From assembly GCA_044892505.1 (NCBI GenBank), contig CM097882.1, positions 441,874,001 to 441,938,000 of the forward strand: DNA of 64,000 nt, read 5' to 3'. Below, piece by piece: positions 33,325-33,762 of the stretch (positions are counted from its first letter, which is position 1; every line of letters begins with the position of its first letter). The stretch is from Schmidtea nova. Lineage: Eukaryota. Below the pieces are notes generated by a model. That model had not been told where the DNA came from. It ran no database searches and was given only the letters and a program-made list of their open reading frames with translations. The translations under genes were made by a program, and so were the position numbers.

Positions 33325-33762
33325 TCAGCGTTCGACCAATCCAGTGATTTCAATAACAAGATTGTTAATAAATGATTGGTACTCTAGATTTTTAAGTCCT
33401 AACACAACAACTTTACCGCTAGAAAATATGTTGACACACATCGGATTATGTTGTAAAAGCCTTAAAGCTGGGAAAAGTTCTGGTTCAAACATACAATTAG
33501 TTTTTTGAGCCAGTTTGTATAAGTTAATATTAAAACCGATGTTAATTGTTACTGTTATTGATTGAATTTGAATATCATTGATATTATATTTCAAGTCATT
33601 TCTAATAATTGGGTTCTTGCAACCCATTATCCTACATTTGCCGGATTTGAAAAATATAAACGTATATTCTTTTGTTCTATCAACTATTTGTTGTGTCTTT
33701 CCATTTTGAAAAATCATTTTGGAAACATCTAATTTACCTCTATAAATTATATTTGACAACAT
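33325..33762 (-). CDS. TATA-binding-protein-like ORF (145 aa, intronless) inside the Polinton block
   Basis: Two TBP half-repeats: SNII...FIFFKSGKCRIMG and IQSITVTINIGFNINLYKLA...MFEPELFPALRL...VNIFSSGKVVVLG. Confidence 0.85.
   Translation of the reverse strand: MLSNIIYRGKLDVSKMIFQNGKTQQIVDRTKEYTFIFFKSGKCRIMGCKNPIIRNDLKYNINDIQIQSITVTINIGFNINLYKLAQKTNCMFEPELFPALRLLQHNPMCVNIFSSGKVVVLGLKNLEYQSFINNLVIEITGLVER

Follow-up and report, generated by a model that had tools for sequence, protein, structure and literature searches.

Among the closest described systems, the vTBP of beta- and gammaherpesviruses (ORF24 in KSHV) belongs to viruses that have no RNA polymerase of their own, and unites a TBP fold and kept Phe residues with a more polar DNA face; a variant TATA stands before the structural genes, host-type promoters serve early expression, and the late promoter of the ORF24 system is TATTWAA (PMC12529657). 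ORF24 itself is large and multidomain and acts within a complex of six proteins; it makes direct contact with Pol II and is devoid of the glutamates that contact TFIIB (PMC12529657). The TBP-like proteins of NCLDV have lost the N-lobe regulator signature and often occur together with a viral TFIIB and with diverged adapter residues (PMC7221094). The protein described here, hereafter mini-TBP, shares with the herpesvirus vTBP all the traits listed first, including the variant box before structural genes and host-type promoters elsewhere, the division being drawn here by gene class and not by timing. Unlike ORF24, it is a bare saddle of 145 residues without extension or conserved partner, it keeps the glutamates, and its box is YATAAACR. 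By analogy, mini-TBP would thus work like the herpesvirus vTBP without being a member of that system. With the NCLDV proteins it has in common a viral TBP fold (BFVD matches) and the loss of the N-lobe regulator signature. With cellular TBP and TRF (PF00352) it shares the two-lobed saddle, the C-lobe stirrup EPELFP and the equivalents of F116, F190 and F207, whereas both N-lobe helices are missing from its model, nine DNA-face positions are changed and identity is 26%.

The elements that carry mini-TBP resemble Polinton/Maverick elements of the adintovirus type in their PolB, rve integrase, A32-like ATPase, adenain protease, TIRs and 6-bp TSDs, to which they add mini-TBP, the box, an SSB-like gene and a likely integrase intron. 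A label 'TBP' is already printed on the map of a MELD virus in the adintovirus study of Starrett et al. (legend of Fig. 5, PMC8502044; Figs 5 and 6 of bioRxiv 697771), where, as here, the gene accompanies a PolB of the adintovirus type. It is a legend entry that does not give the clade membership of the element, and TBP is absent from the labels of Fig. S2 of the same paper; at least one related element has therefore had the gene listed in passing. In the open literature (subscription journals, repeat databases and some supplements falling outside this scope) we found no published analysis of a Polinton TBP or of the box, and the accessible part of the paper on viral TBPs (PMC7221094) makes no mention of Polintons. 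An earlier note on this DNA had left undecided whether the gene was already catalogued.

The window, by which we mean the whole stretch of 64,000 nucleotides analysed, contains the mini-TBP ORF at 33325..33762 on the minus strand, intronless and open from ATG to stop. The ORF matched the Pfam TBP family (PF00352) with an E value of 2.1e-18 (66.4 bits for a cut-off of 22.9), and 35 PDB TBP sequences matched it at E 1e-9 or better. The AlphaFold2 model (55-row alignment) reached a pLDDT of 94.6 and a pTM of 0.84, all Foldseek matches listed for it at E < 0.001 were TBPs, and VIA-align superposed it on human TBP with Z 12.6 and an rmsd of 2.6 Å over 143 residues, the best non-TBP match being at Z 6.8. 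The structure match spans residues 1-144, i.e. two TBP lobes in one saddle, and both half-repeats are present, since 143 of the 145 residues of the model can be superposed on complete TBP cores. Helices of at least four residues are found only at 81-87 and 129-144, none before residue 81, so the N-lobe of the model is a bare sheet. These data agree with the earlier note, which had read from the letters alone an intronless ORF with two TBP half-repeats and no N-terminal extension, a second repeat with both phenylalanines (F97 in ELFP, F113 in IFSSGK) and a shortened first repeat with one (F38 alone is kept, in a repeat about 24 residues shorter). The same note called the gene intact, which is true of its frame and less so of its sequence: the window copy differs from the majority of 25 other copies at 12 positions, four of them private, and two of the differences hit near-invariant N-lobe positions. 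Selection on this copy is probably no longer acting.

Twenty-six to 45 nt upstream of the TBP start, a (TA)n run (33788..33807, minus strand, as read from the sequence) is likely a canonical-type TATA box expanded in the window copy, the run being shorter in the sister copies. On the same strand, ORF91 (32905..33180; 91 aa, Cys-containing) stands in tandem behind TBP, as in the host families in general, and separates it from PolB; the earlier description lacked ORF91. The protein-primed PolB of the same element lies at 27629..31020 on the plus strand (DNA_pol_B_2 at 3e-14; 94% to a sister copy) and is spread over several frames. On the other side, all on the plus strand, are the 3' remnant of the A32-like packaging ATPase (33806..34109; Pox_A32 at 3e-6 in a sister copy), a box TATAAACG at 34089..34096, within the end of the ATPase frame and 33 nt before the next ATG, the gene for a basic protein (34122..34580; no Pfam match, by our labelling a likely core protein), a second box CATAAACG at 34657..34664, upstream of the integrase, and the remnant of this retroviral-type integrase (34714..35355; rve at 1e-5 in a sister copy). 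The position of TBP between PolB and the ATPase, basic-protein and integrase genes, antisense to them, is therefore as first described, and the native order in this subfamily is PolB-ORF91-TBP-ATPase. About 390 nt are missing at 33802/33806 relative to a sister copy, a deletion that removed the 5' half of the ATPase and its YATAAACR box, and the integrase has two stops in its first part, a disrupted intron region near 35100-35160 and an abrupt end at 35355. PolB is in pieces, and one integrase break is likely an intron. No TIR pair was found around the window copy. With the ATPase start deleted and the integrase cut, this copy most plausibly represents a family that is functional but of which it is itself a decaying member. 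The window also contains PolB remnants of other Polintons (35516-38083, plus strand, and 47865-48193, minus strand) with about 65% DNA identity to family B, and Polinton elements here often adjoin or nest within one another. A fragment of a Tc5/pogo-type transposase (26912-27259, minus strand) and, labelled by eye, a broken non-LTR retrotransposon (38250-41050, plus strand) and a HECT-ligase-like fragment (22399-22923, minus strand) were noted as well.

The search of the same genome with mini-TBP gave at least 150 matches, drawn from 18,487 first-look candidates; among the matches listed, 43 had 73-100% identity and 107 had 59-60%, and a genome search with PF00352 added further mini-TBP families at 52-62% identity. 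Sister copies of the element thus carry the TBP gene. Eight copies of the ORF are identical at the DNA level, which indicates that one family spread recently, and seven of the 26 full-length copies contain a stop codon. In the stretches around 20 copies, TBP is divergent from a block composed of the ATPase, the basic protein, the integrase, ORF350, ORF121, a 406-aa ORF, the protease and ORF144, and PolB occupies one end. Sister elements measure 16.5-19 kb and have TIRs of 1-1.8 kb, mostly with AGTAGT...ACTACT termini; TIRs were found for 8 of 8 and a clean 6-bp TSD for 5 of 8. DNA_pol_B_2, Pox_A32, Peptidase_C5 and rve (the last below its cut-off, E 1e-5) were recognized by Pfam in these copies. 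For the 406-aa and 350-aa ORFs Pfam gave nothing relevant, and from size and position we take them to be the major capsid and the penton; likewise, ORF125, whose family has no meaningful match in Pfam or PDB, is presumably SSB-like. In one copy (L241-L242) the SSB-like gene lies within the inverted repeats at both ends, and two inverted family A copies (L037-L040, C2:321.34-321.38M), 99.4% alike over 9 kb, are both without PolB.

Several features of these elements point to transcription by the host. No RNA polymerase was seen among the element ORFs scanned, and the genome contains no multi-copy TFIIB, its six matches being of the host type. In all host families the integrase is split near residue 140 by an AT-rich GT...AG interval of 38-44 nt, whose length fits the frame change, whereas the metagenome relatives looked at have a single open frame. 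Being common to all families, the break is more likely an intron than decay, likely gained in this host lineage, and its conservation points to host Pol II and splicing. The interval had no match among the listed joints of a set of contigs of unrecorded kind from one study, which is uninformative on splicing.

Since the ORF has no intron and the window copy bears private changes, a recently captured, drifting processed copy of a host TBP was considered. Identity to the four host TBP paralogues is only 18-19%, and mini-TBP does not group with them. A 56-row tree was built from 19 of the 181 family sequences, 30 of 141 other TBPs of cellular or viral origin, 4 host sequences, 1 of the giant-virus type and, as root, 2 halovirus sequences, without a named cellular archaeal TBP. 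In it, all 19 Polinton rows fell into one clade with an SH-aLRT of 100, on a long stem of 2.16 changes per column in an open fork. Constraining the window protein with two canonical host TBP exons was rejected (AU p=0.000115). The dN/dS of mini-TBP was 0.11 between the window copy and family A and 0.07-0.26 between families (dS unsaturated), far below 1, to be set beside 0.03-0.07 for the ATPase and 0.06-0.13 for the 406-aa ORF; between the window copy and its nearest subfamily copy it was 0.36. The processed-copy explanation is refuted for the family and has a negligible probability. Mini-TBP belongs to the conserved genes of a Polinton/Maverick lineage, and purifying selection acts on it between families. 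As for the host genes, at least four TBP paralogue loci were seen (L132-L138; C1:389.1M, C1:277.6M, C1:473.8M and C2:358.7M), of which two are divergent and have their two repeats in a single open frame, and another consists of two inverted copies 11 kb apart.

The family extends well beyond this genome. A single-sequence search returned 71 relatives, mostly of 140-170 aa, and a profile search 447, of which the 120 best were listed and the remainder may include ordinary TBPs. Relatives are encoded in 177 stretches of metagenome contigs, from which 80 loci were kept. In 41 of these 80, and in 14 of the 16 loci longer than 5 kb, the contig also bears one of the hallmark genes (ATPase, integrase, capsid-like ORFs, protease or PolB); any gene of the host elements is present in 60. 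Mini-TBP occurs in two groups whose ATPases are just 35-41% alike, with variable gene order. No ORF is conserved beside TBP across the loci. ORF91, considered as an obligate partner, was discarded, with no profile match in the 80 metagenome loci and none in the Atlas. In the viral contig set, no member of the mini-TBP clade was found; its one match, L051, is a full-length TBP among giant-virus-type genes, and TBPs of this type differ from mini-TBP in length and in lying outside the Polinton clade.

Residues were counted in 181 dereplicated family sequences and compared with 141 other TBPs, yeast numbers being assigned by alignment; numbers other than F116, P191, I194, V203 and L205 are those we take to apply. 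In ORF numbering, E93 is kept in 176 sequences (Asp in the other 5), E95 in 181, F97 in 180, and F113 and F38 in 181; in yeast numbering, N69 is kept in 173, F116 in 181, E186 in 176, E188 in 181, F190 in 180, P191 in 168 and F207 in 181. Three of the four intercalating phenylalanines are therefore retained, the first (F99) being Pro in 176 of 181. About 11 residues around helix H1 and 12-13 over helix H2 are lost: the linker over H2 is mostly 19-20 residues long, versus 32 in eukaryotic TBP, and helix H2 with its basic patch, a eukaryotic TBP hallmark, is absent from the family. The DNA face is changed from V71 to Asn (168 of 181), V122 to Arg (179), T124 to Met (181), N159 to Ser (172), V161 to Thr (162), I194 to Arg (168), V203 to Cys (162) and L205 to Asn (181), and one 15-residue DNA-face pattern is common to 126 of the 181. 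The acidic pair E93/E95 matches human E284/E286, which contact TFIIB, and the H2 basic patch is the site bound by TFIIA, TAF1, Mot1 and Brf1/2 (PMC7221094). I194, V203 and L205 are the positions that alter specificity in TBPm3 (PMC1636458), and all three are changed and nearly fixed here. From the kept glutamates, the lost patch and the TBPm3-position changes together, we predict a protein that would still dock the adapter but escape the regulators, and whose preferred DNA sequence would differ.

A candidate for this sequence, TATAAACAA, was first seen by eye 30-40 nt before several genes in the host copies. The pattern [TCG]ATAAAC[AG] was then scanned within 100 nt upstream of genes, which were grouped after the box had been seen; the metagenome loci, not used in finding the box, served as test set. 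The box precedes 98 of 129 packaging and particle-side genes versus 1 of 84 TBP, PolB, SSB-like, ORF91 and ORF163 genes, a contrast whose Fisher p values are overstated because relatives are not independent. Including the PLA2 genes, it was found before 105 of 138 on the forward strand and before none on the reverse, and before 83 of 110 in the metagenome loci alone; the background was 310 of 8594 windows (3.6%). By gene, the counts were 22/22 for the ATPase, 12/13 for the 406-aa ORF, 10/12 for the basic protein, 22/29 for ORF144, 12/19 for ORF350, 11/17 for the integrase, 6/10 for ORF121, 3/7 for the protease and 7/9 for the PLA2 ORF, against 0/55 for TBP, 0/11 for PolB (in windows that are probably not true starts), 1/11 for the SSB-like gene and 0/6 for ORF91. 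The distance to the ATG is mostly 30-50 nt, about 35 nt. Where the box falls inside the upstream coding sequence, it does so in two reading frames (23 and 10 cases), which shows that the constraint acts on the DNA. Whole-element counts of 11-15 were not above those of shuffles (means 8-9), so the signal consists of position and strand only; in two family B copies, 11 of 11 boxes were on the particle-gene strand. A poly(A) signal was rejected as an explanation, A preceding ATAAAC in just 3 of 102 sites.

In a TBP-less Polinton family of the same genome, the box stood before 3 of 101 ORFs in 8 elements; this control, 19 stretches around PF21738 capsids (L203-L240), represents one lineage only, which is distant and differs in its type of promoter. 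TBP matches occurred in 5 of these 19 stretches, all in neighbouring elements of the TBP-bearing type, and the 17 ORFs scanned in the PF21738-capsid elements gave no TBP match. That family has a PLA2-integrase ORF, and many of its genes begin with TAAAA(A)ATG. No TBP-less element of the same capsid type was found, capsid and ATPase scans of the viral contig set giving 0, 0 and 3 remote matches; a search of the genome with a distant capsid gave 99 matches at 28-30% identity, and the one new place examined carries TBP.

Who reads the box can be argued in several ways. The host might do so, through its own TBP or a forkhead factor, with the viral protein acting as a decoy, either by titrating TFIIB or by blocking TATA boxes of the host. 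The kept TFIIB-contact glutamates, combined with the loss of one intercalating Phe, would suit a decoy; ATAAACA fits the forkhead consensus RYAAAYA; and the Foldseek matches include wild-type TBP in complex with a C(-25) variant, which we take to be TATAAACG. Cellular TBP also uses TATAAACG weakly, at 27% of the activity of TATAAATA in a plant assay (PMC10005294). Against this, the forkhead variant GTAAACA occurs in 1 of 138 cases, the reverse strand in 0 of 138 and ATAAACG in 20 of 138, an AT-rich element would have no reason to fix C at position 7 for host TBP, and a decoy would have no need of a DNA face fixed to new residues. We consider this reading unlikely, and the decoy proposed in the earlier note less likely than its other option, a promoter-recognition factor of the element's own, to which the gene-linked box gives positive support.

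We propose that mini-TBP is probably the late-promoter factor of the element, working through host Pol II like the herpesvirus vTBP. From the sequence data we infer the reading of the box by mini-TBP, TFIIB as its partner, its escape from regulators and the early/late timing: (i) mini-TBP would be made early, from a host-type promoter; (ii) it would bind the YATAAACR box before packaging and particle genes; (iii) it would recruit host TFIIB and then RNA polymerase II; and (iv) the loss of the N-lobe basic helix would free it from TFIIA/TAF1/Mot1/Brf1 control. Counted for this role are the fold, the conservation, the selection, the kept glutamates, the DNA-face changes and the tie of the box to gene class, strand and distance, and counted for host transcription are the lack of a multi-copy TFIIB and the likely integrase intron. 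The broader statement, that in a wide Polinton clade a single 145-aa TBP, reprogrammed and lacking the helix to which regulators bind, reads YATAAACR and drives the particle genes through host TFIIB and Pol II, as the smallest viral transcription switch known, is in our judgement an even bet. Some data go against the late-promoter role: a canonical TATA was found before just 23 of 55 TBP genes (versus 20 of 129 packaging and particle-side genes), and Pro191, said to demand T at position 1 of the box (PMC1636458), is kept although 19 of 78 boxes have C there.

The TBPm3-type changes, moreover, are in the C-lobe, which reads the 5' half of the box including position 2 (PMC1636458), whereas the odd base of the forward orientation is at position 7; a reverse reading, TGTTTATR with G at position 2, would suit these changes better. 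Mini-TBP could then read the box reversed, or as a repressor or timer, or else recruit Pol II via another partner as ORF24 does, other viral TBPs having left the host TFIIB route (PMC7221094; PMC12529657). The strict forward strand and the distance of about 35 nt, as expected of a core promoter, the two near-invariant glutamates and the lack of a partner ORF conserved behind TBP across loci argue against these variants, which we hold to be quite unlikely. Finally, virophages use the promoters of their giant virus (bioRxiv 2022.07.28.501842), and the box could similarly serve the machinery of a helper virus, the TBP-like protein doing another job such as TIR binding in replication or packaging. 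TBP adjoins the SSB-like gene in 20 of 80 metagenome loci, in line with such a job. The likely intron points instead to nuclear host transcription, within one genome the box goes with the presence of TBP, and we know of no helper virus for these Polinton elements, which makes this reading very unlikely.

A box tied to gene class and a putative reader encoded by the element bring the gene control of Polintons, and the question of a true viral cycle in them, within reach of tests on a single small protein and its 8-bp site. If the late-promoter role is true, the pair would be a natural orthogonal TBP-box system and would show directly, at the level of the genome, that these 'transposons' still run through a viral life cycle with timed phases; the strategy of herpesviruses for late genes would then have been reached independently, by one protein in place of six. 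The three laboratory TBPm3 positions, changed and fixed, amount to a natural experiment on TBP specificity.

Among the TBP-bearing relatives, host-like cargo was recognized by eye, namely ubiquitin-conjugating-enzyme-like, leucine-rich-repeat and KilA-N-like ORFs (L071:222-719; L077:1918-3330; L106, L124), and tandem duplications were seen of a penton-like ORF in L071 and of ORF144 in L123, L129 and L130.
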